The notes below the pieces were generated by a model. It worked only from the letters and a program-made list of their open reading frames with translations. It was not told the DNA's origin and did not search any database. A stretch of DNA of 64,000 bases from Fibrobacteria bacterium (GTDB lineage Bacteria > Fibrobacterota > Fibrobacteria > UBA11236): the NCBI GenBank assembly GCA_043732185.1, contig JAYTHY010000046.1:5250-69249 (forward strand). Reading direction: 5' to 3'. This document shows positions 2,622 to 19,402 of the stretch, in pieces; position 1 is the stretch's first letter, and each line of letters starts with the position of its first letter. Both the position numbers and the translations under genes were made by a program.

Positions 2622-2752
2622 ATCCCCGCTGGAAGCCGTATTTCCGGTTTCTCTATTGAGTCTTTGGCGTAAGGCTTAACCCTCCCGCCTTAGCTCATCA
2701 CCGTACTCAACATATTGACTTTTTGGGTTTTGTAAACAAGGAGATCAGTGAA

Positions 2753-3967
2753 ATGATCATTTTCAGGAAATACGAAATCATCCTGGCATTACTGACAACC
2801 GGTCAAGTATTTCCGTCCGACCTAAGCCTCGATAGCCTCGTTCATTCGGCCCTTCGAAACAATCCTGAATTGGAAGCCGCGCGTCAGGAAGCTATCGTAG
2901 CGGCACAGGATACTTTGACGGCTCAAGTTTTGGCAAACCCCATCCTAAGCCTTGAGGCCTTGCACAATATGAATGATGGGTCAAAGCCGAAAGCCGGGGT
3001 GAGGCTCTCACAGGAATTCCGACCCGGGGTCCGAAGTAAGCGACTCGAAGTCGCCAAAGCGAATTGGTCAGCGACACTTGCTCGGCAAAAAGCCAGGGAA
3101 TGGGATCTTACCACCGATATCCGCACGGCATATTTCTCTTGGCAGCTTCTCAATCAAAAACTCGCCATTCAAAAGGAAGTTAAAACGCGCTGGGAAGGCT
3201 TGGCCCGCCTGGCTACGGCCAAGGTAGCGGAAGGTCGGGTTTCCCAAGTTGAGGAAGCGCAGGCCCAATTGAACCAAGCTAAAGCCGGACAAAGGGAATT
3301 GGAATTCCAAACCGAATTGGATGCCATTGGAAAACGTCTCGACTTTATGACAGGTAAATCCGGAATCGGAGATTCCATCGCTCTTGAAAAACTGGATTCT
3401 CTTCCCTCAGTTCCGTCCGTGGATTCCCTTAAAACCTGGATAAGTGCCGCCAACCCTGACTTGAAGACTTTGGATCTGGAAACTGCGGCTGTGGATAGGC
3501 AACTTGTTTTAGAAAAGAGCCTTCGGCGGCAATCGTTCAGTCTCACCTTGGGTTTTGATCGGGAATCCGACGGCAGCAATTTAATCGGAGGCGGTATTGA
3601 ATTGCCATTGCCCCTGTTCAACCGCAATCAGGCCGGCATTGCCAAGTCCAAGGCTTCTCTCCGTGAGGCCGAGCTGCGCAGGTCAGCGGCCGGGAAAAAG
3701 ATTGAAGCTGAAATCCAGGAAATCCAAGAGAGGCTTGTCAATCTATCGACCCGTCACCGGAATTATTCGGAACATATCCGTACTCTGAGTCAAAAGCAAC
3801 TGAGCTTATCTGAAAAGGGATTTAAGCAAGGGTTACTTGGGATTTTCGACCTTTCACGTGTCCAAGAGGAGACTCTGGCACAAGACATGGAAGCACTCGA
3901 TATCGTCGATCAGTTTTATCAACAATGGAACCGCCTGGGAAGGGTGGTCGGGGGAAAATTATGGTAA
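2753..3967 (+). CDS. outer-membrane efflux factor (TolC/CzcC family) of an RND heavy-metal efflux system
   Basis: OEP-family N-terminus (LSLDSLVHSALRNNPELEAARQE). ATG at 2753 has AAGGAG at -9; the ORF track's TTG at 2723 is less likely. First gene of a C-B-A operon. Confidence 0.8.
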   Translation: MIIFRKYEIILALLTTGQVFPSDLSLDSLVHSALRNNPELEAARQEAIVAAQDTLTAQVLANPILSLEALHNMNDGSKPKAGVRLSQEFRPGVRSKRLEVAKANWSATLARQKAREWDLTTDIRTAYFSWQLLNQKLAIQKEVKTRWEGLARLATAKVAEGRVSQVEEAQAQLNQAKAGQRELEFQTELDAIGKRLDFMTGKSGIGDSIALEKLDSLPSVPSVDSLKTWISAANPDLKTLDLETAAVDRQLVLEKSLRRQSFSLTLGFDRESDGSNLIGGGIELPLPLFNRNQAGIAKSKASLREAELRRSAAGKKIEAEIQEIQERLVNLSTRHRNYSEHIRTLSQKQLSLSEKGFKQGLLGIFDLSRVQEETLAQDMEALDIVDQFYQQWNRLGRVVGGKLW

Positions 3968-4935
3968 GCATCCGTACATTCGTTCAATGTTTGGCTTTGG
4001 TTATCTTGACTGGCGCGAGCCGAACTTTCGCCCATGCCGGGCATACTGAAGCGCCCCAGGAGCAAACCGGCGCAGGAGGACCGGTCTTCCTATCGGAGGA
4101 GGCGGAAAAAAATCTAGACATCCAGACGGCGGAAGCCACCGTGCAAGCCATCGAGAAAACCATAAAAGCCTCCGGAACCGCGCAGGCCATCCCAGGCACA
4201 CGTGAAAACGTGGCCAGCAAGATTGCCGGAAGAGTGGTTGAACTCAAGGCCACGCTGGGCCAGTACAAGAAGCAAGGAGAACCCCTGCTCATTTTGGAAG
4301 CGCGTCAGCTTTCGGAAACCCCTATTCGCGTTTCCGTCCTCGCGCCCCGCAGCGGAAAAGTGGTCAAACTCAATGTGATCAAAGGCGATGCTGTGGAAAC
4401 GGGGACCTCCCTGCTTGAGATCGCCGATTATTCGGAGGTTTATGCGGTTGCGAAGGTGTACGAATCCCAGGTTGGTAGGATCACTAAAGGCATGCCCGCA
4501 CGAATCTATTCTCCTGCGCTTAAGAATAAGGAATTGGACAGCAAGGTCGATGTGATCGGATCCGAAGTGAACCCTCAGAGCCGCACCGTGGACGTATGGC
4601 TTCGGGTCAAAAACCAGAATGAACAATTGAAAATAAACATGACCGTGAGCGTCTTTTTCCTGGCCGATAAGGAAGATGAATCCATAGTCGTGCCGAAGTC
4701 GGCTTTACTAGGTTCGGGAGGCGAGCGCTTCGTTTTCGTCGTGGAAGGAAACAAGTACACCCGTACCTCCGTTGTTACGGGTATCGAGAATGACAAGTGG
4801 ATCGAGATTGTTGAAGGTCTCACGCCGGGGGATTCGGTTGTGACGCAAGGGAATTATCAATTGCAATTCGCCAAAACCAAACCGGCAACGGGTACCCCGG
4901 CAGAAGCTGGAAAACCCGGTTCCAAGGCGAAATGA
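3961..4935 (+). CDS. RND efflux periplasmic adaptor (membrane fusion protein, CzcB/CusB-like)
   Basis: Signal sequence MVSIRTFVQCLALVILTGA plus beta-barrel/lipoyl-like MFP motifs. ATGGTAA overlap with the upstream stop. Confidence 0.8.
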   Translation: MVSIRTFVQCLALVILTGASRTFAHAGHTEAPQEQTGAGGPVFLSEEAEKNLDIQTAEATVQAIEKTIKASGTAQAIPGTRENVASKIAGRVVELKATLGQYKKQGEPLLILEARQLSETPIRVSVLAPRSGKVVKLNVIKGDAVETGTSLLEIADYSEVYAVAKVYESQVGRITKGMPARIYSPALKNKELDSKVDVIGSEVNPQSRTVDVWLRVKNQNEQLKINMTVSVFFLADKEDESIVVPKSALLGSGGERFVFVVEGNKYTRTSVVTGIENDKWIEIVEGLTPGDSVVTQGNYQLQFAKTKPATGTPAEAGKPGSKAK

Positions 4936-4941
4936 GCCAAT

Positions 4942-7900
4942 ATGCTTAACTTAATCATCCGCTTTTCTCTCCGTAATCGGCTCCTTATTACGGCCCTGGC
5001 CGTCTTACTCACCGTGTACGGGACCTATGTGCTGCGCAAGCTCCCCGTGGATGTCTTTCCGGATCTTAATCGTCCCACCGTTACCATTTTCACGGAAGCC
5101 TCTGGTCTTTCCCCGGAAGAAGTGGAAGCCTTAGTCGCCTATCCCATCGAGACCGCCATGAACGGCGCCACAGGAGTCGAACGGGTTCGATCGGTCTCAA
5201 CGCCCGGTCTGGGCCTGGTGTTCGTGGAGTTCGATTGGTCCACGGATATTTATATCGACAGGCAGATCGTGGCCGAAAAACTTCAGAGCATCCGGGAAAA
5301 TCTCCCGCCTTCCGTGAATCCGGTCATGGGACCCATCACGTCCATCATGGGCGAAATCATGCTTATCAGCGTCAGCGGCGATTCTACTTCACCGATGGAT
5401 TTGCGAACCTTGTCGGACTGGACCATAAAACCCAGGCTACTCAGCATTCCCGGGGTGGCCCAAGTTATCCCCATTGGAGGCGATCTTAAACAATACCATA
5501 TCCTCGTCTCGCCGGATAAGTTACGCCAGAACGGCGTGACCCTGCGTCAGGTCGAGGAAGCGGTCAAGAAGTCCAATACCAATTCTACAGGTGGATTCCT
5601 GGTGCAGGGATATACGGAAGCCGTGGTACGCAACCTCGGACGCGTAGAGTCCCTGGATGATTTGCGGAATACTGTCGTCGCGTTCCGGGACGGGCAATCC
5701 ATCACCTTGGATCAGGTAGCGGATATCCGTTTCGGATCTCCGCAAAAAAGAGGATCCGGGGGATCGAATGCCAGGCCCGCCGTTATCCTGAGCGTTAAAA
5801 AGCAACCGGGCGCAAGCACCACCGACCTCACGGAAAAAGTCGATGCCGCCCTGAAGGATTTGCAAAAGACCCTTCCAAAGGGCGTTGAAATCAATGCCAA
5901 CCTATTCCGCCAATCCAATTTCATAACTACCGCCATCGGCAATGTCGAAGACGCCTTGCGTGACGGGAGCATCCTGGTTGTCATCGTCCTCTTTTTCTTT
6001 CTCCTGAATTTCCGGACCACCTTCATCACCTTAACGGCCATTCCGTTGTCCATTCTGATTACCGTACTGGTCTTCAAGATCTACGGCATTTCCATCAATA
6101 CCATGACCCTCGGGGGTTTGGCCGTCGCCATCGGAGAGTTGGTTGATGACGCCATCGTGGGAGTCGAGAACGTATTCCGCAGATTAAAGGAGAACAGCGC
6201 GAAACCCAATCCGGAGCCGGTCCTGGACGTCATATACATCGCATCCTCGGAGGTCAGGAATTCCATCGTCTTCGCGACCTTGATCGTAGTGCTTGTCTTT
6301 ATCCCATTGTTTTCATTGGGTGGGATAGAAGGACGCATCTTTGCCCCGCTGGGCATCTCCTATATCCTTTCGATCCTGGCGTCGCTGCTGGTTTCCCTCA
6401 CGGTCACTCCCGCATTATGCGCCTATCTGCTTCCCAATGCGAAGTTTTTGCATAAGGAAGCGGATGGGCCGTTGGTCCGCTTCCTCAAGAACTGGAATCG
6501 GAAATATCTTTTGGAACCAACCATCAGCCGACCTTGGTTGTCCCTATCCATAGCCCTGGTACTTTTGGCAGCGGCCGTCGCGTCCTTTCCATTTCTGGGA
6601 AAAGAATTCCTACCGCCATTCAACGAAGGCACGGCGACAATCAATGTCCTTTTGCCGCCGGGAACCTCGCTTCCCGAATCGGATCGCATCGGCATATTGG
6701 CTGAAAAATTAATCCTCAAAGTGCCGGAAGTCCTGTCGACTGGGAGGCGGACCGGCCGGGCTGAAGAGGATGATCATGCCGAAGGGGTCCACTCAGCGGA
6801 AATCGACGTGGATTTGAAGCCCAGTAAAAGAAAGCGGGAAGTCATACTCGGGGATATCCGCAAGAATCTCGATTTGATACCGGGTATCGCCATCAATATC
6901 GGTCAGCCCATCTCCCATCGCATCGATCATCTGTTGTCCGGTATACGCGCCCAAGTGGCCATCAAGCTCTATGGCGACGACCTGGGAACATTACGGCAAA
7001 AGGCGGATGAAATCGAAGGACAATTGAAAACCGTTCGTGGCGTAGTGGATTTATCCGTCGAAAAGCAGGTTCTCATTCCTCAGATTTCTGTAAAGCTAAA
7101 TAGGGACGAACTGAAGCGCTATGGCCTACAACCAGGTGACATAACGGAACTCATCCAAACAGCATTGGGCGGTGAAAAAGTTTCCGAGGTCCTGGAAGAC
7201 CAGAAGCGTTTTTCCATGGTCGTCCTGCTGGACAAGGATAGTCGCGCCGACATGGAAAAAATAGGCTCGATCCTGGTGGAGCTTCCGAGCGGGGATCAAA
7301 TCCCTCTGAATATGGTCGCGACAATCCTGCCTGCCGTGGGACCCAACCAGATTTTGCGTGAAAACGTCCGGCGGCGCATCGTTATCCAATGCAATACTAG
7401 CGGCCGCGATCTGGGCTCCGTCGTTAATGACATCCAGAAGGTGATAGGCGAAAAAGTCCAATTGCCGACTGGATATTTCATCGAGTACGGCGGACAATTC
7501 GAAAGTCAAAGGGAGGCCAGCCGAATGATTGGGCTTCTCAGTATTTTCTCGCTATTGGGGATGTTCCTCGTACTATTCATGCACTTCCGTTCCGTCAAGC
7601 TTGTCATGTTCATCATGCTCAACATCCCCTTCTCCATGATCGGCGCCGTACTCGCCCTTTGGCTTACGACCCGGACCTTCTCCATCGGTTCCCTGGTGGG
7701 ATTCGTCACCCTTTGCGGCATCTCCGCCCGCAATGGCATCATGATGGTCTCGCATTACCTCCATCTGCTTCGGGAGGAAGGAGAAACATGGACACCGCAT
7801 ATGATCACGCGGGGCGCTTTGGAGCGCTTGGTTCCCGTCCTCATGACGGCCTCAACCGCGGCCTTGGCTCTTATCCCTCTCATCCTGTCGCCTAGCGAAC

Positions 7901-8079
7901 CTGGTAAGGAAATCCTGTATCCGGTCGCCGTCGTCATCTTTGGCGGACTGATCAGTTCAACCTTGATGAACATTGCTTTGGTCCCAACCATGTTTTGGAA
8001 TTTTGGTCAAAAGGCCGTGGCTCACCTTCTGGAAAAAGATAAGGCTGAAGCCTCAGAAAGGAAGGGCAACACGAATTAA
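4942..8079 (+). CDS. heavy-metal efflux RND permease (CzcA/CusA family, HME-RND)
   Basis: 1045 aa. N-terminus MLNLIIRFSLRNRLLITALAVLLTVYGTYVLRKLPVDVFPDLNRPTV is typical of CusA/CzcA, with 12-TM RND architecture. Confidence 0.9.
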   Translation: MLNLIIRFSLRNRLLITALAVLLTVYGTYVLRKLPVDVFPDLNRPTVTIFTEASGLSPEEVEALVAYPIETAMNGATGVERVRSVSTPGLGLVFVEFDWSTDIYIDRQIVAEKLQSIRENLPPSVNPVMGPITSIMGEIMLISVSGDSTSPMDLRTLSDWTIKPRLLSIPGVAQVIPIGGDLKQYHILVSPDKLRQNGVTLRQVEEAVKKSNTNSTGGFLVQGYTEAVVRNLGRVESLDDLRNTVVAFRDGQSITLDQVADIRFGSPQKRGSGGSNARPAVILSVKKQPGASTTDLTEKVDAALKDLQKTLPKGVEINANLFRQSNFITTAIGNVEDALRDGSILVVIVLFFFLLNFRTTFITLTAIPLSILITVLVFKIYGISINTMTLGGLAVAIGELVDDAIVGVENVFRRLKENSAKPNPEPVLDVIYIASSEVRNSIVFATLIVVLVFIPLFSLGGIEGRIFAPLGISYILSILASLLVSLTVTPALCAYLLPNAKFLHKEADGPLVRFLKNWNRKYLLEPTISRPWLSLSIALVLLAAAVASFPFLGKEFLPPFNEGTATINVLLPPGTSLPESDRIGILAEKLILKVPEVLSTGRRTGRAEEDDHAEGVHSAEIDVDLKPSKRKREVILGDIRKNLDLIPGIAINIGQPISHRIDHLLSGIRAQVAIKLYGDDLGTLRQKADEIEGQLKTVRGVVDLSVEKQVLIPQISVKLNRDELKRYGLQPGDITELIQTALGGEKVSEVLEDQKRFSMVVLLDKDSRADMEKIGSILVELPSGDQIPLNMVATILPAVGPNQILRENVRRRIVIQCNTSGRDLGSVVNDIQKVIGEKVQLPTGYFIEYGGQFESQREASRMIGLLSIFSLLGMFLVLFMHFRSVKLVMFIMLNIPFSMIGAVLALWLTTRTFSIGSLVGFVTLCGISARNGIMMVSHYLHLLREEGETWTPHMITRGALERLVPVLMTASTAALALIPLILSPSEPGKEILYPVAVVIFGGLISSTLMNIALVPTMFWNFGQKAVAHLLEKDKAEASERKGNTN

Positions 8080-8159
8080 CCCTTGGCACCAACCTTGCTC
8101 TCTGTCTCAATGTCTCTCTGTACTGTGTATTTTCAACCATTCATCACTAGGAGTAAATT

Positions 8160-8630
8160 ATGAAGAACACGAAATTGACACTGCTGTCCACCTTCTTTGC
8201 AGCCACCCTATGTACCGTTCCCACCATTCAGGCGAACGAGAAGGGCGAGGCCGCACACGATTCGGCTATGTCTAGATCACCGGAAATGCATATCAATCCC
8301 ACCGAAGGATTGAAAAATATGCATGCCCAGCTGGATAGCGCGGACAAGTACTTGGCAGCAGGCAAACTTGATCGTATGCATGTTTTCGCCGAAGCCATCG
8401 AGGGAGCCGTCGTCGGAATCGACAAAGACACATCCCTAGATGCCATGAAGCAGAAACGTGTTTCCGGTTGCGTGAAAAATATCGCCAAGCTGGCGAAGGA
8501 GTTGGACGAAAACGGCGATGCCAACAAATTGGAGGAGACCCGTAAAACGATTAAAAAGCTAAAGGCCCAGGCAGAATTGTTGGAAAAACAGTTCAAGAGT
8601 AAAGCCGGCAAGGAAGATCACCATAAATAA
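8160..8630 (+). CDS. secreted periplasmic protein, Lys/Glu-rich helical, scattered His/Met (possible metal-binding)
   Basis: Signal peptide MKNTKLTLLSTFFAATLCTVPTIQA. AGGAG RBS. C-terminal EDHHK. Confidence 0.5.
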   Translation: MKNTKLTLLSTFFAATLCTVPTIQANEKGEAAHDSAMSRSPEMHINPTEGLKNMHAQLDSADKYLAAGKLDRMHVFAEAIEGAVVGIDKDTSLDAMKQKRVSGCVKNIAKLAKELDENGDANKLEETRKTIKKLKAQAELLEKQFKSKAGKEDHHK

Positions 8631-8766
8631 CGGAATGCGATATCACCGTAATATCATTGGGTGATTCCGAAGCTGCCGGCGATTTGAAAACCGGCGGTTT
8701 CTCCTATTTTTCATAGTAGTTCTAGAATTGAAATCAAATACACAAACGAAGAAAGCGAGGTCGAAA

Positions 8767-9831
8767 ATGGCCTTTCAAGTCCTGATTCGGGCTTTAGGTG
8801 CCATAACTCTATTGGCACTTTCTGGATGCTCAATAAAAATGAATGACGGTGCGATGGGAAATCCCTCCACGGTTGCCATACCAATAATTACCTCCGATGC
8901 GCTCTATGTCGTTAATGGAGGGAGCAATTCTTTGACGGTCATAAATACCTCTACCAACGAAGTGGCAGGAACCATTGTGCTCAAGGATGTTACCTTTCCT
9001 CACCACCTTTCTTTGAGCCCGGATCGGGGGTCCCTGTCCTTGGCCGTGCCAGGCATGGACCTCAGCGCGGGACACGATGGGGGCGGAATGGCCATGAAAA
9101 TGAAAGGCGCAATACTCAACCTCGACGCCGCCACAGGACAAACCAAGGTCAGCCGCTTGCTGGACGCACCAAATCATAATGGTGCATTTTCCCCGGATGG
9201 CAAGGAGGTGTGGACGTCACAGATGATCATGTCAGGGAATATCCTGGTATTGGATGCTGTTACGCTCACGACCATCAAGATTATCGACGTTGGTGATATG
9301 CCCGCCGAAGTCACCTTTTCCAGCGACGGCAAGTATGCCTTCGTTGCCAATGGGATGTCCAACAACGTGACGATAATCGACGTCGCCATGAAAACGGTAC
9401 TCAAGACGCTTTCGGTGGGCATGAATCCCGTCGGCGCTTGGCCAGGGCCGAACGGCATGATGTATGTCGATAATGAAAAGAGCAAAACCTTGACTGTCAT
9501 CGATGGAGCGAAGCTCGATGCCGTCAAAACCATCAATCTAGGATTCATGCCAGGCATGGCGGCCATCGCACCCAATGGAGAGCTGTGGGTGACGAATGCG
9601 GAAGACGGTAAGGTTGTCTTTTTTTCGGCCACGGATGGTTCGAAGTCAGGTGAACTGGCCACGGGAGCGAATGCCCATGGCATAGCCTTCGCCGGTGATG
9701 GGAAAACCGCTTATGTTTCCAACCAAGGGGCCGGAACCGTTAGCGTCATAGATATTCTTTCAAAAGCTTTGGTCAAAAATATTCCGGTCGGGGCGGAACC
9801 AAATGGAATGGCTTTTAGGAAAATGCCTTAG
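8767..9831 (+). CDS. YVTN-family beta-propeller repeat lipoprotein
   Basis: Lipobox LALSGC. Six or more repeats of the YVxNxxSNxhxVID type (YVVNGGSNSLTVINTST, YAFVANGMSNNVTIIDV, TAYVSNQGAGTVSVIDI). ATG 8767 has a GAGG RBS; the ORF track's start at 8728 is also possible. Confidence 0.75.
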   Translation: MAFQVLIRALGAITLLALSGCSIKMNDGAMGNPSTVAIPIITSDALYVVNGGSNSLTVINTSTNEVAGTIVLKDVTFPHHLSLSPDRGSLSLAVPGMDLSAGHDGGGMAMKMKGAILNLDAATGQTKVSRLLDAPNHNGAFSPDGKEVWTSQMIMSGNILVLDAVTLTTIKIIDVGDMPAEVTFSSDGKYAFVANGMSNNVTIIDVAMKTVLKTLSVGMNPVGAWPGPNGMMYVDNEKSKTLTVIDGAKLDAVKTINLGFMPGMAAIAPNGELWVTNAEDGKVVFFSATDGSKSGELATGANAHGIAFAGDGKTAYVSNQGAGTVSVIDILSKALVKNIPVGAEPNGMAFRKMP

Positions 9832-9880
9832 CATCAACGATGAAATTATTGAAACCAAATACCGAGGAGACGAAATAATC

Positions 9881-11047
9881 ATGGAATTAAAAAACCTTGG
9901 ATTTCTGGCTGCTATCCTCCTTTTCGTTACGGGTTGTCTGAAGCAGGAAAGTTCCCCAACCGGACCAGCTGCCAATGCCCCATTCCAATCCATTTATAAG
10001 CCCATCAAAAGGGAATACTGGATCACCACGGAAACGACATTCAAATGGGATATGGTGCCGGGGGGTGAAGCCATGATGACCAATGATGTCATTACCCCCG
10101 AACGACGCTACCTCTATAAAACCATCCGGTATGTGCAATCCGACAGTCAGTGGAATACGCTCTCCCTACCCGAATGGCAGCAGCTCTCCGGTCCCATCAT
10201 CCGGGCCACCGTAGGGGATTCCGTGCTGGTCCACTTCAAGAATGGCTCGAACACGGGAATGCCCCTGAGCATACATCCACATAATCTTTTCTATAACGAA
10301 GCCAATGAGGGTGTATGGAGGAAGGACCGGCCCAAAGATTGGCCTGAGCAAGGGACGGCGGGAGGATCCGTCCAACCCGGAGGCGAGTTCCTTTATCACT
10401 GGAAAGCCGAAGCGAAGTCCGTTGGGGTTGGCCCCTATCATAGCCACTCCTTCCACCCCGCGGAAGAACTCTCACTGGGTCTTATCGGAACGATCATTGT
10501 TGATGAGCCCCCCGATCATCCGGAATACGTGAAGTTCGATACCACAATCGCATTGATCTTTAAGACTTATCTGGCGAGGGTTTCCCCAATGGATACCACC
10601 GTGAAGGATTCCACAAAAAAGGATACCTGCACGCCGCCCCTTATACCCTGGAATGGCGGCTGCCATCCGAGAGAACACGTGCCCAAAGATCAATGGCCGG
10701 AAAATATCGTGGACTCATTGGCCCATGGGGGTGGACCGGAAGTGCATACAATCAACGGGATTGCTTATGCCAATCTTAAAGGGCTGAGTTTCAAAAAAGG
10801 CCAAAATATCAGGTTCGTCGTGGTGGCGATGGACGATGAAGGAACACAAAACCACACTATCCATTTCCACGGAGAAATGCTCCAGGAAATGACGCGGACA
10901 AATCTATACAAGGACGTGTTCGATCTTCCTTCTGCCGTGGCAATCGATTTGATAATGAAGGCCGAAAATGTGGGTAAGTGGATGCTTCATTGCCACGTCG
11001 AGCATCACGCTTCGGAAATGATGGCAACTTACGAGATCAGGGAATAA
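9881..11047 (+). CDS. multicopper-oxidase-like cupredoxin lipoprotein (probably two-domain type), paralog A
   Basis: Lipobox FVTGC. All four MCO copper-ligand motifs are present: HPHN, YHSHSFH, HTIHFHGE, HCHVEHHASEMM. GAGGAG RBS before the ATG at 9881. Confidence 0.65.
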   Translation: MELKNLGFLAAILLFVTGCLKQESSPTGPAANAPFQSIYKPIKREYWITTETTFKWDMVPGGEAMMTNDVITPERRYLYKTIRYVQSDSQWNTLSLPEWQQLSGPIIRATVGDSVLVHFKNGSNTGMPLSIHPHNLFYNEANEGVWRKDRPKDWPEQGTAGGSVQPGGEFLYHWKAEAKSVGVGPYHSHSFHPAEELSLGLIGTIIVDEPPDHPEYVKFDTTIALIFKTYLARVSPMDTTVKDSTKKDTCTPPLIPWNGGCHPREHVPKDQWPENIVDSLAHGGGPEVHTINGIAYANLKGLSFKKGQNIRFVVVAMDDEGTQNHTIHFHGEMLQEMTRTNLYKDVFDLPSAVAIDLIMKAENVGKWMLHCHVEHHASEMMATYEIRE

Positions 11048-11089
11048 GAATTTAGAAATCAACGCGTATTCAACGAGAAGGTAAATCTA

Positions 11090-11413
11090 ATGCAACTCAG
11101 AAAAATCGAAGCCTACGTCCGTAGAGAGCGGCTTTCGTTTATTCTCATGGGCCTGGACAAACTCCCCAAGTTCCCGGGAATTACGGTCCTTGACTGCCAG
11201 GGTTTCGGCAACGAGCATCAGCCAAAGACCCACGCCCGGATTGTAGAATACCTCCTTGAACCCTTTCGCCATGCCAAACTTGAAATATTCTGCCCCGAAG
11301 ATGAAATGGGTCGAATTATTGGAGTTGTTAAGGAACAATCCGGGACCAAAGAAGGAAGCCATGTTAGGATTTTCGTATCTGAATTGGGAGAGTTCGAGGA
11401 AGTTAAGAGATGA
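11090..11413 (+). CDS. PII-like (GlnB/CutA-fold) small protein, PII-NG-like
   Basis: 107 aa. KIEAYVRRERLSFILMGLDKLPKFPGITVLDCQGFGNEH is collinear with the GlnB N-terminus (KIEAIIKPFKLDDVREAL..GITGMTVTEVKGFGRQKGH). The T-loop is shortened and lacks Tyr51. Confidence 0.6.
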   Translation: MQLRKIEAYVRRERLSFILMGLDKLPKFPGITVLDCQGFGNEHQPKTHARIVEYLLEPFRHAKLEIFCPEDEMGRIIGVVKEQSGTKEGSHVRIFVSELGEFEEVKR

Positions 11414-11444
11414 CAACCTTGTTGGATAATATTTTGAACCCTAT

Positions 11445-12437
11445 TTGGCGGGGCTTCAAATAGCCCGCCTTCTATTTTTCATCCTCTTTATCTTGAATAC
11501 TATGTACGCATTCGCTGGACGCTGGGTCGTTCACGATATAAGAAACATTCCCGGCAAAGAGGTCAACGTAGTTGTCGGAGACCGGAACGGAAATAAATGG
11601 ATTGGAACAAATAAAGGCCTTGCGGAGTTGACCTTTTCCGGGGAGTGGAAGCTGTTCAACAGGAAAAACACCAATGGAAATCTGAATTCGGATTCAATCA
11701 CTTGTTTAGCCGTGGATTCCAAGAATAATATTTGGATTGGAACCAGGGGAGGAGGGGTTTCCGTCTTTGGCTATGGGTTATGGAAGAATTTCACTTCGGA
11801 AGGTACCAGCGGGTCACTTCCTGACAATTGGATTACGGCAATCGATATCGGTAGTGACGGTGATGTTTGGGTCGGCACTTACAACGGATTCGCGAAACTT
11901 CGTGGGATGAACTGGACTAGTTTTTCCGGTGATAAGATCTCCGGACACCTTCCCAGTAAAATAGTGACTGCCCTGGCGGTGGAGGGTGAGTCCAATGTGT
12001 GGATCGGAACCGCCGGCGGGCTTGTCCATTTTTACCGGTCGGAGTGGGAGATTTACAAAAAAGAAAATACCTCAGGTGGATTGCCTCACAATAGCATCAC
12101 CTCAATTTCAATATCGCCTTCGGGAACAAAATGGATTGGAACATATCGTGGAGTTGGAAGGCTTTCTGGTTCTGCGTGGAATTCTTTTCCGAATGTTAAA
12201 ATGCCAGATGAATTACGTGAGGCGCATATTTACCAGGTTAATGCGGACAAAAAAGAGGATGGTTGGGTTTCATTCAAGGGTGGAGCGGCGCATTGGAATG
12301 GAAATTCCTGGAAAATATTTACCAAAGAAAATACCGGAGGCGGGATTTCCACAGGTTATGTCTATGCCACCTATCCCGAGGAGAATGGCCAAATATGGTT
12401 TGGAACTAGGGAAGGGTTGACCCAGTATATTCCGTAG
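11445..12437 (+). CDS. secreted stand-alone 7-bladed beta-propeller (two-component-regulator propeller / Reg_prop-type repeats)
   Basis: TTG start. Signal peptide ending AFA. Seven repeats of the pattern N.WIGT..G.. (NKWIGTNKGLAEL, NIWIGTRGGGVSVF, DVWVGTYNGFAKL, NVWIGTAGGLVHF, TKWIGTYRGVGRL, QIWFGTREGLTQY). No kinase or receiver domains. Confidence 0.65.
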   Translation: MAGLQIARLLFFILFILNTMYAFAGRWVVHDIRNIPGKEVNVVVGDRNGNKWIGTNKGLAELTFSGEWKLFNRKNTNGNLNSDSITCLAVDSKNNIWIGTRGGGVSVFGYGLWKNFTSEGTSGSLPDNWITAIDIGSDGDVWVGTYNGFAKLRGMNWTSFSGDKISGHLPSKIVTALAVEGESNVWIGTAGGLVHFYRSEWEIYKKENTSGGLPHNSITSISISPSGTKWIGTYRGVGRLSGSAWNSFPNVKMPDELREAHIYQVNADKKEDGWVSFKGGAAHWNGNSWKIFTKENTGGGISTGYVYATYPEENGQIWFGTREGLTQYIP

Positions 12438-12513
12438 ACACGTTTTTTTTAAAAAAGGTGTTCAGAATGAAACCGTAGATTTTCAAAGGCACAAACGCCC
12501 AAGGAGAGTGCAA

Positions 12514-13686
12514 GTGAAACCAAACCGAATCATACGTCTTTGCCTCGCAGCCCCGTTATTTTTCCTTTCCGGCTGCCTGACCAAGGAAAGTTCAACCACC
12601 GGCCCGGATGCCTCACCCGCATTCACATCCAGCTATTCTCCCGTTAAAAGGGAGTACTGGGTCAGCACTGAAACCAAGTTCAAATGGGACATGGTGCCGG
12701 ATGGGGAGGCCATGATGACAAATGACATCATATATCCGGAAAGACGTTACTTGTATAAAACCATCCGTTACGTCCAAACGGATAGCCAGTGGAATGTACT
12801 CCCGCAACCCTCATGGCAGCAGCTTTCCGGACCTATCATACGCGCGACGGTAGGCGACTCGGTTATCGTTCACTTCAAGAATGGCGCCAATACCGGAATG
12901 CCGTTGAGCATGCATCCTCATAACCTGGTCTATGATGAAGCCAATGAAGGCGTCTGGAGAAAGGATCGACCCAAGGAATGGCCTGAAGGAGGCACCGCGG
13001 GTGGCTCAGTGAAGCCGGGTGATTCCTTTACTTATAAATGGAAGGCCGAGGAGAAGTCGGTCGGCGTAGGTCCCTACCACAGTCATTCCTTCCATCCCGC
13101 GGAAGAGATCGCCTTCGGGCTAATCGGAACAATCATCGTGGACCAGCCGCCGGATCACCCCGACTATGTGAAGTTCGACAGCACCATCGCGCTGGTTTTC
13201 AAATCCTACTTGGCAATGGTCGCTCCCATGGATTCAAGCATGAAGGACACGACCAAGAAAGACACCTGCACGCCGCCCCTCATTCCATGGAATGGAGGAT
13301 GCCATCCCAAAGAGCATGTACCCCAAGATCAATGGCCCGAAAACATCATCGACTCAATGGCACATGGAGGCGGTCCCGAGGTACATACCATAAATGGAAT
13401 CGCGTATGCCAATCTCAAAGGTCTGGTTTTTAAAAAAGGACAGAACATCCGATTCGTCGTGTTCGCAATGGATGATGAAGGAACACAGAATCACACGGGT
13501 CATTTCCACGGCGAAATGCTTCGGGAAATGTCCCGGAAGAACCTCGTTAAAGACGTATTCGATCTTCCCTCCGCAGTGGCGATGGACCTGATGATGAATG
13601 CGGAAAATGTGGGGAAGTGGATGCTGCACTGCCACGTAGAACATCATGCGTCCGAAATGATGGCCACCTATGAAATCTCAGAGTAA
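12514..13686 (+). CDS. multicopper-oxidase-like cupredoxin lipoprotein, paralog B
   Basis: Roughly 80% aa identity to 9881..11047 (by eye), with the same four Cu-ligand motifs (HPHN, YHSHSFH, HTGHFHGE, HCHVEHHASEMM). Lipobox FLSGC. GTG 12514 has AAGGAG at -7; the ORF track's GTG 12508 is an alternative. Confidence 0.65.
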   Translation: MKPNRIIRLCLAAPLFFLSGCLTKESSTTGPDASPAFTSSYSPVKREYWVSTETKFKWDMVPDGEAMMTNDIIYPERRYLYKTIRYVQTDSQWNVLPQPSWQQLSGPIIRATVGDSVIVHFKNGANTGMPLSMHPHNLVYDEANEGVWRKDRPKEWPEGGTAGGSVKPGDSFTYKWKAEEKSVGVGPYHSHSFHPAEEIAFGLIGTIIVDQPPDHPDYVKFDSTIALVFKSYLAMVAPMDSSMKDTTKKDTCTPPLIPWNGGCHPKEHVPQDQWPENIIDSMAHGGGPEVHTINGIAYANLKGLVFKKGQNIRFVVFAMDDEGTQNHTGHFHGEMLREMSRKNLVKDVFDLPSAVAMDLMMNAENVGKWMLHCHVEHHASEMMATYEISE

Positions 13687-13695
13687 GGAATCGAA

Positions 13696-14286
13696 ATGAA
13701 AAAGACAATCCCTTTCATAATTGTCGCCGGAATAGGCGTATTCGGATGCAGTCAAAAATCAGAACGCGAGAAAGAATCCACTTCTATGTCGGCCCAGGAA
13801 TCAACCAGGCCCAAACCGGCCTTTGCTGCCCCGGACTCATTCAAAGTGGGGCTCGGAAAGGTTTTTGAAGGCTATACCAATATCGAATCCGCCTTGGCGC
13901 ATGATAACTTCGCCCAGGCCAAAGATGCATTCCAATCCATGCATACCATATTGCACATTCTCCAAACCGACGGTCTGGATAGTTCCGGCAAAGTTTACTG
14001 GGATTCTCTGGATGGGGCCATTATGGGAGTTCTTCATCCCATGGCCGCTGCGGAAAACATCTCGGGAATGCGCGATCACTTCATCGATTTCACGCCGCTG
14101 ATTCTGGATGCGGTTGAGAAATTCGGAGCGTCATCCGAAATCCAAGCCTACCTATTCCATTGCCCTATGGCCAGGAATAAAAAAGGAGCAGATTGGCTTC
14201 AACGCGATACCGTGCTGTTAAACCCCTACTATGGGAATTCGATGCCCACCTGCGGGGCGCTTGTGAGAGAGGTAAAATTCCACTAG
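13696..14286 (+). CDS. lipoprotein with HCPM motif (DUF3347-like / heavy-metal-binding-motif-like)
   Basis: Lipobox VFGCS. C-terminal YLFHCPMARNKKGADWLQ resembles the YxCPMHP heavy-metal-binding motif. AAGGAA RBS. Confidence 0.5.
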   Translation: MKKTIPFIIVAGIGVFGCSQKSEREKESTSMSAQESTRPKPAFAAPDSFKVGLGKVFEGYTNIESALAHDNFAQAKDAFQSMHTILHILQTDGLDSSGKVYWDSLDGAIMGVLHPMAAAENISGMRDHFIDFTPLILDAVEKFGASSEIQAYLFHCPMARNKKGADWLQRDTVLLNPYYGNSMPTCGALVREVKFH

Positions 14287-14367
14287 CGCCCCTATTTCCA
14301 GATTTGACTAGGTATCATCTTTTAGGGTCTCTCCACCGAATTTCATTCACACGAAAGGTGTACAAAA

Positions 14368-14892
14368 ATGAATTACTCGAAAATAGTATCCAAAATATCC
14401 CTGCTCCTATTCTCTTTCATTTTGCGAAGAGCTGCATTCATCCGTATCCTCAAGAGTCTCATATTCACCGGAATTGCATTAACCAGCGCATCTCTGATAT
14501 CGTGCGCTCAATCATCACCAGGAAATCGCGACTCCGGTGAAACGAATTCTTCGACTCTGAATAATTCAGGAGAAATCCAAGGCGTTCTTCATGAGTTTCA
14601 GCTAAGGCTCGATTCAGTAAGGTCGGCGATCGACAGCAATGACCTAAACAAGATTCATGGACAGGCCGAAAACCTCATCCACTGTAAAAAAGCGATCGGG
14701 GGTCTGTATTCCTCGAAAAATGCCTGGGAACGAAATAAAGTCAAGAGCTATTTACACGACATCGATCTTAGCCTTTACTGGCTGCATCAATATGCCGATT
14801 CAAGGGATAGAGCAGCTTCAAATAAAATATTTAATTCGCTCAAATTGGAATTTGAAGCCTTACAGAATTTCTTAGCTCCAAGAATTAAATGA
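14368..14892 (+). CDS. hypothetical helical lipoprotein
   Basis: Signal/lipobox LISCAQ. No recognisable domain. Confidence 0.45.
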   Translation: MNYSKIVSKISLLLFSFILRRAAFIRILKSLIFTGIALTSASLISCAQSSPGNRDSGETNSSTLNNSGEIQGVLHEFQLRLDSVRSAIDSNDLNKIHGQAENLIHCKKAIGGLYSSKNAWERNKVKSYLHDIDLSLYWLHQYADSRDRAASNKIFNSLKLEFEALQNFLAPRIK

Positions 14893-14924
14893 ATTAGGTA
14901 TCACAAAGGGAGGACTTTTACAGC

Positions 14925-15371
14925 GTGAGACAACCTTTTCCAGGAGTGAATGTTTTGGAACCAAAGAAGCCGCGCTTGACTCCCCGCCCAATTCGACATG
15001 TCCCTGGCCCTCCCATGGAAAAGACGCAAGCAGAAGGGCAAAGCATTTTCAAATACCGCGACTATCGCGAATTCATCCGCGACTTCTACACCTCAAGAAA
15101 AGCGAAGGATCCGAAATTTTCTTTTCGCAAGATGGCAATACTCCTAAGCCTCCCCAGTCATGGCCATATTATATTCCTAATAGACGGCGCAAGAAATGCG
15201 GGCACTAAATCTTTCGCGAAAATGATTCGCGGCTTTGGTTTCTCAGGGAAAGAAATCCCTTATTTTGAAAACCTGGTAATGTTTAACCAGGCAACCTCAA
15301 ACCAGGAAAAAATGTTCTATAAAGGGCGTCTTACGGAGCTATTAGGAAAAAAGCCTTTGCGAACAAATTAA
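14925..15371 (+). CDS. TIGR02147-like (Fibrobacter paralogous family) N-terminal fragment, 148 aa, ends in an in-frame TAA
   Basis: YRDYREFIRDFYTSRKAKDPKFSFRKMA...IPYFENLVMFNQA resembles, from memory, the conserved N-terminal half of the TIGR02147 family. About half the usual family length. Confidence 0.45.
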   Translation: MRQPFPGVNVLEPKKPRLTPRPIRHVPGPPMEKTQAEGQSIFKYRDYREFIRDFYTSRKAKDPKFSFRKMAILLSLPSHGHIIFLIDGARNAGTKSFAKMIRGFGFSGKEIPYFENLVMFNQATSNQEKMFYKGRLTELLGKKPLRTN

Positions 15372-16685
15372 GTGGTAGGGTCGCACGTGCCCCCTTTCTG
15401 CTCCCGAAAGGAATTTGATTGCTATTATTGCGTCATGCCAGACCTATTCCAAAGTTTGATTTCACGATACAAGTCCGATCCCGAATCCGTATACCATACG
15501 TGGTTTCTTAATAGCGGAGAAAGACTCAAGGCTTTCCGTTCCGTTCGGCTTGGTGTCGCGCAAGTTATCTCGGACATCCAGACTGGGAAATTCGGAAATG
15601 ATTTCAAAGGCTCTTCGCTGGAGTTCGTTCTCAACTGCATTACCGAACAGAAGCAGGTTTTTGAAGGGGCCGCGCATCCATTTTATTGGAAACCGAAGTT
15701 GCGTATTCCCGATATCTATGAGAATCAACCCAACAAAATTGCGTTCGGACAATTTCTCGAAAAGTGCCTGAACGCGACCAAGGAGGAACAAATACTGAAG
15801 GAGATCGCGCACTTAGACGATCTCTCCATCAAGGGCCTGGGCCCGGCGGTCGCCAGTATCCTGTATTTTCTTCATCCAACCCTCATTCCCCCGTGTAACA
15901 CCGCCATCGTCAACGGTTTCAATACTCTATTCGGAGAAAAAAGGAAACTGGGTTCCTGGCAGGAATATTTGAAGATGCGGGAAACCATCCTAGCCAGGAA
16001 CAGCGAATGGAAATCGGAACTGTCCAACGATCTAGGCGCAATCGGTGGATTCCTGTTCGATGTAGGCGTTAAAAAAATCGTTCCCGATGAAATCCAAAAT
16101 CTCACCGCCGAAGAAAAAGAAAAAATCGATTCCCTGGTTGGAAAAAGACGGAAGGACATTCGTACGGAAAGAGAGGAAGAAGGTTTGCATTCCGAAATGC
16201 AGTACCATCTTCTCAAGATCGGCAAAGCGCTGGGATATGATGTAATTAGCGCCGTAAATGACCGCTCCCGTCAGCATCAGGGGAATCTTTTCTCCTTTGT
16301 ATCACTTCAACATTTTCCCGTTTTGCCCGTGGATGAAGATGTCTTATCCACAATCAAGCTTGTCGATGTGCTCTGGTTTGAGAAAGGAACTTCGAAAATC
16401 GTGTGCGGGTTCGAGGTAGAAAAGAGCACGTCTATATACTCCGGAATCTTACGATTGAGTGATTTATTTTTCTCCCTTCCGGACCACCAAACCAAACTTT
16501 TCCTGGTGGTTCCCAATCAAAGGGAAACCGAAGTCATAATGCAACTGGGGCGACCGTCGATTAAAATCCATGCCACCAGCATTCAATACATCCTTTTCTC
16601 AGAACTCCGGGATAATTGCGACGCCTTATGCCGGTTCGGTGAAAATCATGCGATCATGAGTAAAATTGCCAAAAAAATCACATGA
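15372..16685 (+). CDS. HhH-motif + PD-(D/E)xK restriction-endonuclease-like protein (start uncertain: GTG 15372 directly after the TAA, or ATG 15435)
   Basis: Central LSIKGLGPAVASILYFLHPTLIPPCN is helix-hairpin-helix-like. The C-terminus (EMQYHLLKIGKALGYDV ... VDVLWFEKG ... GFEVEKS) matches the E / hD / ExK order of Mrr-like nuclease cores. Same frame as 14925..15371. Confidence 0.5.
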   Translation: MVGSHVPPFCSRKEFDCYYCVMPDLFQSLISRYKSDPESVYHTWFLNSGERLKAFRSVRLGVAQVISDIQTGKFGNDFKGSSLEFVLNCITEQKQVFEGAAHPFYWKPKLRIPDIYENQPNKIAFGQFLEKCLNATKEEQILKEIAHLDDLSIKGLGPAVASILYFLHPTLIPPCNTAIVNGFNTLFGEKRKLGSWQEYLKMRETILARNSEWKSELSNDLGAIGGFLFDVGVKKIVPDEIQNLTAEEKEKIDSLVGKRRKDIRTEREEEGLHSEMQYHLLKIGKALGYDVISAVNDRSRQHQGNLFSFVSLQHFPVLPVDEDVLSTIKLVDVLWFEKGTSKIVCGFEVEKSTSIYSGILRLSDLFFSLPDHQTKLFLVVPNQRETEVIMQLGRPSIKIHATSIQYILFSELRDNCDALCRFGENHAIMSKIAKKIT

Positions 16686-16919: not shown

Positions 16920-18668
16920 ATGGCTTGCTACGAACAAGACTTGATAATGTCAAAATCCCAACTGGGAGCAAGAAAGAACAGAATGCCGGCAGCCGAAAAA
17001 ACTTTTATTGGAATGTCCCTTTTTCTCCCATCTCGGATTGACTTAGGATTTCTCTATCTGGTCCTACTTTCGACTCCAAACCCGACCTGGTCGCACGGCG
17101 CGGATGCTGCCGCTGCGGCCCATCCCGCCCATATCGGTTCAGGAGTGGATATGATGGAACCGGATGATTCATTGAAAATCGCTGTGGACATGTTCGGATA
17201 CCTCGCAAACTCCTGGACTTCCACGCTTGGAGTAGGGACGCCTCTTGGAGCGGGAGGCAAAGGCCCGCAGTATTACAATCAATGGCTTTACAAGAACGGC
17301 CCTTTTGATCGACCACATCTCGAAAAACCGGACCTTCGGCCGGGATATGAAGACTTTTCCTATGTGCCCACGTGGCAGCCGGATCAGTTGGAACTGCGGA
17401 CCCAATACCGTTTTCTTCCCCGTATGTGGGGATCGATTTCCCTCGGATATGATGCCGACCCGATCAATACCGAATCTGAAGACGCCCTCCACGCTCCGAC
17501 CCTCGAAGAGCTGCTTCTGAAGTGGGCGCCGGAAGGCACACCCGGATTGGCGTTCAGCTTCGGTCAGCAAACCATTGCCGGATCTTATAGTCCGATATTT
17601 GATCATTTCACATTGATTCACTCCGAGTTCGCCGGGCTTACGGCCACTTACGAACGCGAATCTTCCAGCGGCGTAAAAATGGAAGGGACGGCGGCCGTGG
17701 GCCAAGAAGGCGTTGGTCGATTGAAAAAGCCTGTTCAATCAAATTCAAACGATGTCGGCGATCCCGGAACCGCAATGTATACAGATGGCATCCGCTCACG
17801 CAATCATTTCCAGGCCAACATTCGGCTCACCTCTCCCGGAGGATTCTACCTGGGCTTCCTGGGCGAATACCAGAGCTTACCTGAAGACAGCACGGTCATG
17901 GTCCCTCTGGCCGCCACCTTATTCAGATACCATTGGCGTAGGAGCCGGGGTTGGCAGGCCGGCGGTGAATGCGGATATGTCGGTAAGATCTGGGAACATC
18001 ATTTTACCGTAAGTCATGGCGAAGGCGATGTGAACATGGCATGGAGCGGTCCTGACGCCATTTCCCTGCCCAGCAGGGTTCCTCCGGATGTGGAATGGAC
18101 CAGAGAGGGTAGCGCGTTATCCCAGGCTATCTATTGGGGCGGATTCCATGACGGGCGCTGGCGCATCGATGCCGGTGCTTGGACGCAGTGGCGCGACCCC
18201 GCAAAGGATGCGGGGTACTCCTACGCCACCGGAAAAACCGGACCGGACAGCATTCTGCAACTGAAAGCGCAGGACTTCCGGGCCGCGAAGCTCGCATTGG
18301 AACCCTCTTTCAAGTGGAGAGGATTCATGACGCTCGGGCTTCGTTACGATTACTTCCTTTATTTGGATCCATCAGCCCATGCCAATACCATAGAACCCCT
18401 TACCGATGCAGCGCTACGACCTGTTGAAGCCGTTTTACCAGATGGATCAACGGCCCAAATGCAGGGACCCTCACAATGGGAGCGCGAAGCTGCCAACGCG
18501 CAAATCATTTCTCCCTTTGCGCAGATGGATCTGGGCGAAGACTTCCATGCCCGTGCAGGCTGGTCCGGAGCTTGGTATAGTAAAGGTGTGAACCGCCAGG
18601 GTTCCATTGGGGAATTCCATGCCAATGCCACTTTGGCGGCTTGGTTCACTTACCGCTTTGACCAATAA
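16920..18668 (+). CDS. hypothetical W/Y/G-rich exported protein, possible outer-membrane beta-barrel
   Basis: 582 aa. Internal candidate signal peptide MSLFLPSRIDLGFLYLVLLSTPNPTWS. Aromatic-rich amphipathic segments throughout. No enzymatic motif. Confidence 0.45.
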   Translation: MACYEQDLIMSKSQLGARKNRMPAAEKTFIGMSLFLPSRIDLGFLYLVLLSTPNPTWSHGADAAAAAHPAHIGSGVDMMEPDDSLKIAVDMFGYLANSWTSTLGVGTPLGAGGKGPQYYNQWLYKNGPFDRPHLEKPDLRPGYEDFSYVPTWQPDQLELRTQYRFLPRMWGSISLGYDADPINTESEDALHAPTLEELLLKWAPEGTPGLAFSFGQQTIAGSYSPIFDHFTLIHSEFAGLTATYERESSSGVKMEGTAAVGQEGVGRLKKPVQSNSNDVGDPGTAMYTDGIRSRNHFQANIRLTSPGGFYLGFLGEYQSLPEDSTVMVPLAATLFRYHWRRSRGWQAGGECGYVGKIWEHHFTVSHGEGDVNMAWSGPDAISLPSRVPPDVEWTREGSALSQAIYWGGFHDGRWRIDAGAWTQWRDPAKDAGYSYATGKTGPDSILQLKAQDFRAAKLALEPSFKWRGFMTLGLRYDYFLYLDPSAHANTIEPLTDAALRPVEAVLPDGSTAQMQGPSQWEREAANAQIISPFAQMDLGEDFHARAGWSGAWYSKGVNRQGSIGEFHANATLAAWFTYRFDQ

Positions 18669-19326: not shown

Positions 19327-19402
19327 TGGAGCGGATTGCGGGACTCGAACCCGCGACCCTTTGCTTGGGAAGCAAAAGCTCTACCAACTGAGCTAAATCC
19401 GC
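19327..19402 (-). tRNA. tRNA-Gly (anticodon CCC), CCA encoded
   Basis: The minus strand reads GCGGATTTAGCTCAGTTGGTAGAGCTTTTGCTTCCCAAGCAAAGGGTCGCGGGTTCGAGTCCCGCAATCCGCTCCA. This folds as a canonical cloverleaf with anticodon loop TCCCAAG. Confidence 0.9.

Follow-up and report, generated by a model that had tools for sequence, protein, structure and literature searches.

The region considered here lies on a 64,000-nt stretch of DNA from a Fibrobacteria bacterium (GenBank assembly GCA_043732185.1, contig JAYTHY010000046.1, positions 5,250 to 69,249; hereafter the window). Between 14925 and 16685, two open reading frames (ORFs) follow each other on the plus strand in the same frame, with a single TAA between them. 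With a probability of about 0.8, they are two separate genes that share a frame by chance, and the downstream one is a member of the CopL family known from the copper-resistance cluster of plasmid pMOL30 of Cupriavidus metallidurans CH34. Two genes are preferred over a nonsense split or readthrough because two other assemblies show the very same junction, the frames of the pair differ in relatives, the homologues of the downstream protein start at its ATG and none of them is fused to the upstream family.

The junction between the two genes

The layout agrees with its description in an earlier note on this DNA. The upstream ORF (14925..15371, plus strand, GTG start, 148 aa) ends with the TAA at 15369..15371. 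A GTG at 15372 abuts this stop in the same frame, which stays open through the stop at 16683-16685 (ORF 15372-16685, 437 aa). The earliest ATG of the downstream frame is found at 15435, and the 63 nt before it translate as VVGSHVPPFCSRKEFDCYYCV, the stretch in which the earlier note had seen a cluster of cysteines. For adjacent genes on the same strand the chance of a shared frame is 1 in 3, and a 20-codon spacer is free of stops with a probability of 0.38 at the base composition of the window. An in-frame layout with an open spacer is no rarer than chance, at roughly one in eight gene pairs; it is real but ordinary.

Three explanations had been offered for this layout, namely one longer gene broken up by a nonsense mutation or an error of sequencing, stop-codon readthrough or recoding, and two genuine genes with translation restarting at 15435. 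The shared frame, the single stop and the stop-free spacer of 63 nt would all suit one longer gene, composed of a TIGR02147 domain and a nuclease and interrupted at 15369-15371. However, the TAA and its flanks are unchanged in two independently assembled Logan sequences, L001 (SRR22198289) and L002 (SRR23617241). A related lineage (L008, L009 and L010) contains the same gene pair, with protein identities of about 80-85% for the upstream and 97% for the downstream product; in L008 and L009, a 1-nt length difference in a poly-A run alters the last residues of the upstream gene, its stop becomes TAG and the two genes lie out of frame (difference of 2, start-to-start distance 416 nt). The earlier note had also proposed looking for fused homologues: none was found among the homologues of the downstream protein, of which more than 6900 were detectable, nor among at least 596 copies of its gene in a scan of one genome per species. 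Upstream of CopL homologues in six other phyla lie unrelated genes, and the upstream piece is devoid of TIGR02147 positions 107-272, so that not even a complete domain fusion would result. A split gene is hence very improbable. Programmed readthrough or recoding of the TAA to yield one joined product is more improbable still. The in-frame stop followed by an open spacer would allow it, and the spacer peptide of L008, GIGSIRPPAVCFRKGFDCYHCV, looks similar to that of the window. This likeness, however, is explained by a DNA identity of about 90% between the two spacers, whose unambiguously aligned 3' half carries three non-synonymous changes and one synonymous change. Moreover, no conserved readthrough product is possible, since the pair lies in different frames in L008 and L009, and a promoter and terminator scan of the junction region returned structures and signals at chance level only.

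The third explanation is the one that held. In L005, a distant relative (78% nucleotide identity), DNA homology starts exactly at 15435. Homologues typically measure about 415 aa from the position equivalent to this ATG: the best 120 of the more than 6900 are 381-439 aa long (mostly 412-427) and align from there, and the 100% identical protein P0001 is called at 416 aa. By these starts, 15372..15434 (plus strand) is an intergenic spacer of 63 nt that by chance has no stop in the frame shared by the two genes, and the apparent 'Cys cluster' is its translation; it is present as had been claimed, but lies outside the homologous protein. A false lead is removed from this locus, which is read as holding neither a recoding event nor a split gene nor an orphan restriction system.

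The upstream gene is an N-terminal-only member of TIGR02147 (NCBIfam), a paralogous family of Fibrobacter succinogenes with a length of about 272 aa. Its ORF scores 89.5-90.5 bits against a cut-off of 50 (E 2.5e-25 to 1e-25), while spanning only profile positions 3-106 of 272 and missing the C-terminal ~165. About the first 40% of a family protein is thus present, and the earlier estimate of about half the family length was sound, though on the generous side. The match begins at residue 40 of the 148-aa ORF, and the gene callers of other assemblies picked the ATG at 15015 (118 aa, P0121); the real gene is likely 15015-15371 on the plus strand. UvrB of the window is 81-82% identical to proteins of named Fibrobacterota/Fibrobacteria metagenome-assembled genomes (MAGs), and because the host is a member of the Fibrobacterota by this protein, TIGR02147 is a native family there. 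The sole close relatives of the stub among 5.8 billion clusters are likewise short (118, 140 and 162 aa; profile positions 2-107 or 2-82), and at least three related lineages retain the short form at its place between DUF3347 and copL. Over the part shared with L008, the ratio of non-synonymous to synonymous substitution rates (dN/dS) is 0.21 (17 synonymous and 16 non-synonymous differences), as compared with 0.07 for DUF3347 and 0.06 for the downstream gene. The stub is under relaxed but real purifying selection, which makes a small stand-alone protein, truncated, long persisting and possibly functional, more likely than a dead remnant. On the other side, the frameshifted tail in L008 and the different breakpoint in L011 (profile 2-82) look like decay and speak against a functional protein. 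The 3' end of the stub is unconstrained. A tblastn search with the stub as query revealed no paralogue elsewhere in the window.

Two observations concern the surroundings of the stub. In L011, a 982-bp metagenome contig, the stub (780-982) leaves the window sequence after ENLVM (window ~15281) and continues into unrelated sequence, so that L011 shows either another form of truncation or an assembly chimera. The 635 bp at 14288-14922 of the window, with a 174-aa ORF (14368-14892) without family matches, are absent from L008 and L011; in both, the stub directly follows DUF3347, and the sequences match again from 14923, 2 nt ahead of the GTG at 14925.

Identity and predicted architecture of the downstream protein

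The copL-like gene (15435..16685, plus strand, 416 aa plus stop) encodes a protein that is 45% identical to CopL of pMOL30 (BLASTP, E 3e-128, residues 1-415 against 1-421 in proteins of 416 and 421 aa) and, judged by this homology, is a further member of an already known family. The pMOL30 match is RMET_RS30570 (Rmet_6120, WP_008652084.1, 180704-181969). Rmet_6120 is copL (PMC9045368, PMC7563307, PMC11647585), and RMET_RS30570 is equated with it because its position fits the transcription start of copL, mapped to 181983 of the minus strand and 14 bp ahead of Rmet_6120 (PMC9045368). Within the cop1 cluster of pMOL30, copVTMKNSRABCDIJGFOLQHEW, the gene is flanked by those for a P-type ATPase and a DUF2933 protein (copF and copO) and by copQ, copH (CzcE family) and copE; the gene order has been given as copHQ; copL<->copOFGJ (PMC11647585). 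Both proteins have the same two-domain layout, the same D...ExE site and a place inside a copper-resistance cluster. They differ in clade, the window protein falling into one with 62-67% identity that comprises Bacteroidota, Cyanobacteria and others, and pMOL30 CopL into one with 44-47% identity, formed by Proteobacteria and Actinomycetota. In addition, Cupriavidus CopL has a Cys-rich CNCC patch which the window protein lacks, and the neighbours are CusCBA, a multicopper oxidase and DUF3347 in the window but copF, copO, copQ and copH on pMOL30.

CopL of C. metallidurans has been labelled a 'cys-rich cytosolic protein' (PMC7563307) and annotated as a 'type II restriction enzyme' (PMC12029693); JGI and PGAP likewise label homologues 'type II restriction enzyme/endonuclease'. 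Its gene has an own promoter with a CopR-like motif, and a copper-induced antisense transcript starts within it (PMC7563307). The table of a metal-mix challenge includes the gene with those of the cop determinant (PMC11647585), and the protein was missing from the proteome detections (PMC11647595). A literature search returned nothing on DUF3347 together with copper, nor on restriction enzymes in copper clusters of Bacteroidetes. CopL of Xanthomonas, a small unrelated protein that regulates copAB, shares only its name with CopL of pMOL30. The Xanthomonas genes are mentioned in a review as copLAB (PMC10342166).

From homology and structure models, CopL is predicted to be a cytosolic protein of two domains, a helical one of DNA-binding type and one of nuclease type with a preserved acidic site. 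In AlphaFold models (pLDDT 82.5 and 79.5), residues 1-265 (15435..16229, plus strand) form an all-helical domain. It contains a strongly conserved loop, HPFYWKPKLRIPDIYEN (residues 81-97), of low model confidence, and an element resembling a helix-hairpin-helix (HhH), in which helices 117-130 and 136-146 surround IKGLGP (nt 15783-15872). In this hairpin G134 and L135 are invariant, and further on N155 is invariant as well. A GLGP-type hairpin and a conserved polar residue about 20 residues on are likewise found in the HhH-GPD DNA glycosylases (MutY, OGG1, archaeal Ogg); the place of their catalytic Asp may be that of the invariant Asn (N155). No Pfam HhH or HhH-GPD family matched the N-terminal domain.

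Residues 266-416 (16230..16682, plus strand) form the second, restriction-endonuclease-like domain, for which precomputed Pfam annotation of P0001 gives PF27126 NmeDI_C. In the model with pLDDT 82.5, the DSSP order of this domain matches the alpha-beta-beta-beta-alpha-beta core of that fold, with D311 (nt 16365-16367) opening strand 2 and E327-V-E329-K330 (nt 16413-16424) closing strand 3. D311 and E329 do not vary among homologues of 28-67% identity; one homologue has lost E327, and several, CopL of pMOL30 among them, have a His in place of K330. D...ExE is the BamHI variant of the PD-(D/E)xK motif, and the domain is predicted to be PD-(D/E)xK-like with the variant motif D...ExE(K/H). The combination of an HhH-like N-terminal and a restriction-endonuclease-like C-terminal part, proposed in the earlier note, is supported by NmeDI_C, a weak REase_II match and the AlphaFold topology; the Mrr-type core proposed with it is not. 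CopL has figured as part of the cop cluster of pMOL30 from the first description of that cluster onwards, to which the predicted restriction-endonuclease fold and HhH domain of the protein are now added.

The source of PF27126 is R.NmeDI, a type II restriction endonuclease of Neisseria meningitidis with 351 aa (PMC2095814). The C-terminal domain is what this enzyme and the window protein have in common. The gene of R.NmeDI is paired and overlaps with that of a C5 methyltransferase and its product cuts around RCCGGY, whereas the window protein has no DNA methyltransferase beside it; its N-terminal 265 residues and its copper context are also unlike R.NmeDI. The likeness does not extend to the whole protein: PADLOC REase_II matched weakly (E 1.8e-4), with residues 327-413 aligned to positions 237-321 of 351, and it is by the length of 351 alone that this profile is tied to R.NmeDI. 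Searches of PDB sequences, with a single sequence and with a profile, yielded nothing meaningful. A copper-sensing Cys/His site (C395-x3-C399...H405, C111) was considered as a feature of the family and rejected, as these residues vary in divergent homologues. The cysteines behind the 'cys-rich' label are specific to a clade, and the window protein has 6 Cys in 416 residues.

Genomic context and possible roles of CopL

The copL gene of the window sits at the end of a plus-strand copper island. By Pfam matches, the island comprises OEP/CusC (2723-3967), CusB (3925-4935), CusA (4942-8079), a beta-propeller protein (8728-9831), a protein like multicopper oxidases (9803-11047), a Reg_prop protein (11445-12437), a multicopper oxidase (12508-13686) and DUF3347 (13696-14286). 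The families at 2723..14286 also flank CopL homologues in other genomes. A neighbour survey covered 80 loci with CopL homologues from a collection of one genome per species, clustering the ORFs in flanks of up to 10 kb on each side and annotating the recurrent clusters. At least one recurrent metal-resistance family was present at 64 of the 80 loci and at least two at 52, in raw counts; most of the remaining loci are short contigs or MAGs from outside the Bacteroidota whose genes could not cluster. Among the neighbour families, the multicopper oxidase was the most frequent (40 loci), followed by small HMBD proteins (37), the CusB-type adaptor and DUF3347 (34 each), the outer-membrane factor OEP (32), CusA/CzcA (30), a class I S-adenosylmethionine (SAM) methyltransferase of 221 aa (26), HMA P-type ATPases (25), SnoaL-like proteins (22), DUF2911 (21), AraC (17) and DUF305 (12).

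A tblastn search of plasmids returned 184 records with the gene, 85 of them conjugative, from Enterococcus (65), Sphingobium (15), Listeria (10), Sphingomonas (10), Hymenobacter (9), Cupriavidus (9) and others. On plasmids of E. faecium and Listeria, CopL stands beside CopY, P-type ATPases, HMA proteins, a multicopper oxidase and DUF2933, and these plasmids are of relevance to copper co-selection in farm and food settings. Its neighbours are a P-type ATPase and CzcA on a Leptolyngbya plasmid; a metal-sensitive regulator, HMA, MerR and DUF305 on one of Streptomyces mirabilis; and DUF3347, a copper ATPase, DUF305 and a multicopper oxidase on one of Pontibacter. The relatives of CopL that lie in copper or heavy-metal clusters come from at least six phyla. 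As the earlier note had observed, there is no DNA methyltransferase around copL in the window, and none is among the 20 most frequent annotated neighbour families of the 80 loci. Standing without a methyltransferase partner is the rule for the CopL family and not an oddity of the window locus. The 221-aa SAM enzyme was considered as a cognate DNA methyltransferase and rejected: it is UbiE/Methyltransf_25-like, its N6_N4_Mtase score is under the cut-off, it occurs at only 26 of the 80 loci, and it is not found in the window.

No other protein of the island comes near CopL in conservation. Copies from Bacteroidota, Nitrospirota, Gammaproteobacteria, Acidobacteriota, Calditrichota and Cyanobacteria share 62-67% identity with the window protein, as against 42-47% in the clade of Proteobacteria and Actinomycetota and about 40% in that of Firmicutes. 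Across the same 80 loci, the median identity is 64% for CopL, but 46% for the beta-propeller protein, 31.5% for CusA, 28% for DUF3347 and 26% for CusB; even UvrB of the window genome, at 56-58% identity to other phyla, is below CopL. This points to movement of copL apart from its neighbours, to an unusually strong constraint on it or, probably, to both.

On this basis, CopL may act on DNA. It would bind DNA through the HhH domain, and its acidic site would bind a divalent metal and then cut or nick the DNA, so that the protein would be a low-abundance maintenance or repair nuclease linked to the copper regulon and serving under copper stress, not a sequence-specific restriction enzyme. We put this mechanism forward tentatively, at less than even odds. 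The antisense transcription and the absence from the C. metallidurans proteome fit a protein that is harmful when abundant. On a bolder reading, which is possible but doubtful, CopL would be catalytically active on DNA, as a nuclease or an enzyme of repair type with an HhH domain for recognition and a BamHI-like D...ExE site, and copper resistance would thereby have a hitherto overlooked arm that protects or processes DNA. Copper clusters have retained CopL in Fibrobacterota, Bacteroidota, Proteobacteria, Firmicutes, Cyanobacteria and Actinomycetota, under a constraint above that of UvrB and far above that of the pumps and oxidases.

Several points weigh against this interpretation. The third residue of the PD-(D/E)xK motif is a Glu, with the Lys or His one position later, for which reason catalysis is not assured. 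In Foldseek searches, the best matches of the whole protein, EcoT38I and BsaWI, were non-significant (E >= 0.057), and the top PDB matches of the N-terminal domain, HhH-GPD glycosylases (MjOgg 3knt with a probability of 0.85, MutY and OGG1), had E >= 0.34 and TM values of 0.3-0.44. Neither ORF matched any family of a local Pfam at E <= 1, and a local NCBIfam had no match for the window protein, pMOL30 CopL or Enterococcus CopL. The context counts are raw ones. Copper toxicity in Escherichia coli is attributed mainly to damage of iron-sulfur clusters and not of DNA, which weakens the idea of repair. As for C. metallidurans, the literature reports labels for CopL but no function, and acute copper did not induce copL in one study (PMC7563307).

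Other roles can be considered. The earlier note had likened the protein to a solitary, type IV-like restriction or defence nuclease, and an orphan type II or a modification-dependent type IV enzyme could have come to lie in the accessory region by happenstance. The NmeDI_C domain, the REase_II match, the restriction-enzyme labels of JGI and PGAP and the frequent plasmid location would agree with this. But only some 85 C-terminal residues fit the 351-position profile, to which the N-terminal domain has no relation; searches of Pfam and PADLOC matched neither an Mrr-type nor another defence model; and no DNA methyltransferase recurs next to the gene, the recurrent 221-aa enzyme being of another kind. 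The setting in 64 of 80 genomes is one of copper and heavy metals instead of defence islands, with a single, non-recurrent relative near AbiE. Restriction enzymes typically turn over fast, and an identity of 62-67% across phyla together with a dN/dS of 0.06 is the opposite of this. For a CopL homologue within a copper island without any defence context, such a role is improbable. Somewhat less so, but still unlikely, is a selfish or element-maintenance nuclease, homing-like or post-segregational, which spreads or retains copper modules without a part in copper physiology. The much higher conservation of CopL than of the cargo genes beside it suggests that it was transferred independently or selected separately. 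Its place within the islands varies, some genomes carry two (OZ245715.1) or three copies (an Ohtaekwangia MAG), nearly half of the plasmid records (85 of 184) are conjugative, insertion sequences flank the copies in Enterococcus and Listeria, and in the window a tRNA-Gly gene lies just past the end of the island. Yet CopL is specific to metal clusters and not to mobile elements in general, it has no antitoxin or methyltransferase partner, and it has been under strong purifying selection over a long divergence, which is unusual for homing endonuclease genes. The promoter with a CopR-like motif on pMOL30 also argues against a purely selfish gene (PMC7563307).

Of similarly low likelihood is a non-catalytic role, either as a DNA-binding regulator or as a cytosolic metal sensor whose acidic site or cysteines bind copper. 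CopL is among the few cytosolic proteins of copper islands, and many Bacteroidota islands have no classical copper regulator among their recurrent families (AraC at 17 of 80 loci). The 'cys-rich' label (PMC7563307) and C395-x3-C399...H405 in the main clade would point in the same direction. On the other hand, the cysteines are not conserved outside that clade and are few in the window protein, the clusters of pMOL30, Enterococcus and Listeria already possess CopRS, CopY or two-component regulators, and CopL has no fixed place beside a target promoter. The function of CopL can be examined in tractable hosts, i.e. C. metallidurans, Pontibacter actiniarum and E. faecium.

Further observations at copL loci

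In the window, a 582-aa ORF downstream of copL (16920-18668) had no Pfam or NCBIfam match. Its DNA is 78-93% homologous to L008, where it is broken into ORFs of 189 aa and 162 aa, and one of the two versions, in the window or in L008, may be a pseudogene. This ORF is the last of the island, and a tRNA-Gly(ccc) gene follows some 660 nt past its end on the minus strand (19327-19402). The G+C content over 14 to 17 kb of the island region is 45-47%, below that of the flanks; together with the tRNA gene beyond the island end, this suggests a tRNA-associated genomic island. Via L008, DNA homology links the two multicopper oxidase-like genes of the island (9803-11047 and 12508-13686), and their products are short (392-414 aa) and of two domains, as compared with a three-domain form of ~760 aa in Bacteroidota islands.

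In several genomes CopL is present twice or three times, and every copy has a metal cluster of its own. Those of OZ245715.1 (L018 and L036) are ~43 kb apart, the Ohtaekwangia MAG has L063, L084 and L087, and L042 and L066 belong here as well. The 221-aa SAM methyltransferase (Methyltransf_25/11, UbiE-like) lies within two genes of CopL at about 13 of the 80 loci. A UbiE-like methyltransferase is also found near CopL in MAGs of Gammaproteobacteria and Chloracidobacterium outside obvious copper clusters, on pMOL30 (ubiE genes) and on the Streptomyces plasmid. In Cupriavidus, Enterococcus, Listeria and a metagenome relative (L092, L093, L095 and L007), genes for small DUF2933 proteins (copO in pMOL30) adjoin that of CopL or lie close to it. 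Lastly, many copies from Chitinophagaceae (L013, L015, L017, L021, L042, L052, L054 and L066) have a conserved block, AAGGATTGCTGTAAATGATGTATTTTGCTG, ~90 nt upstream of the CopL start, which we take to resemble the TTG / TAnnTTTG promoter of Bacteroidota; the spacer of the window contains a related core, GATTGCTAT.

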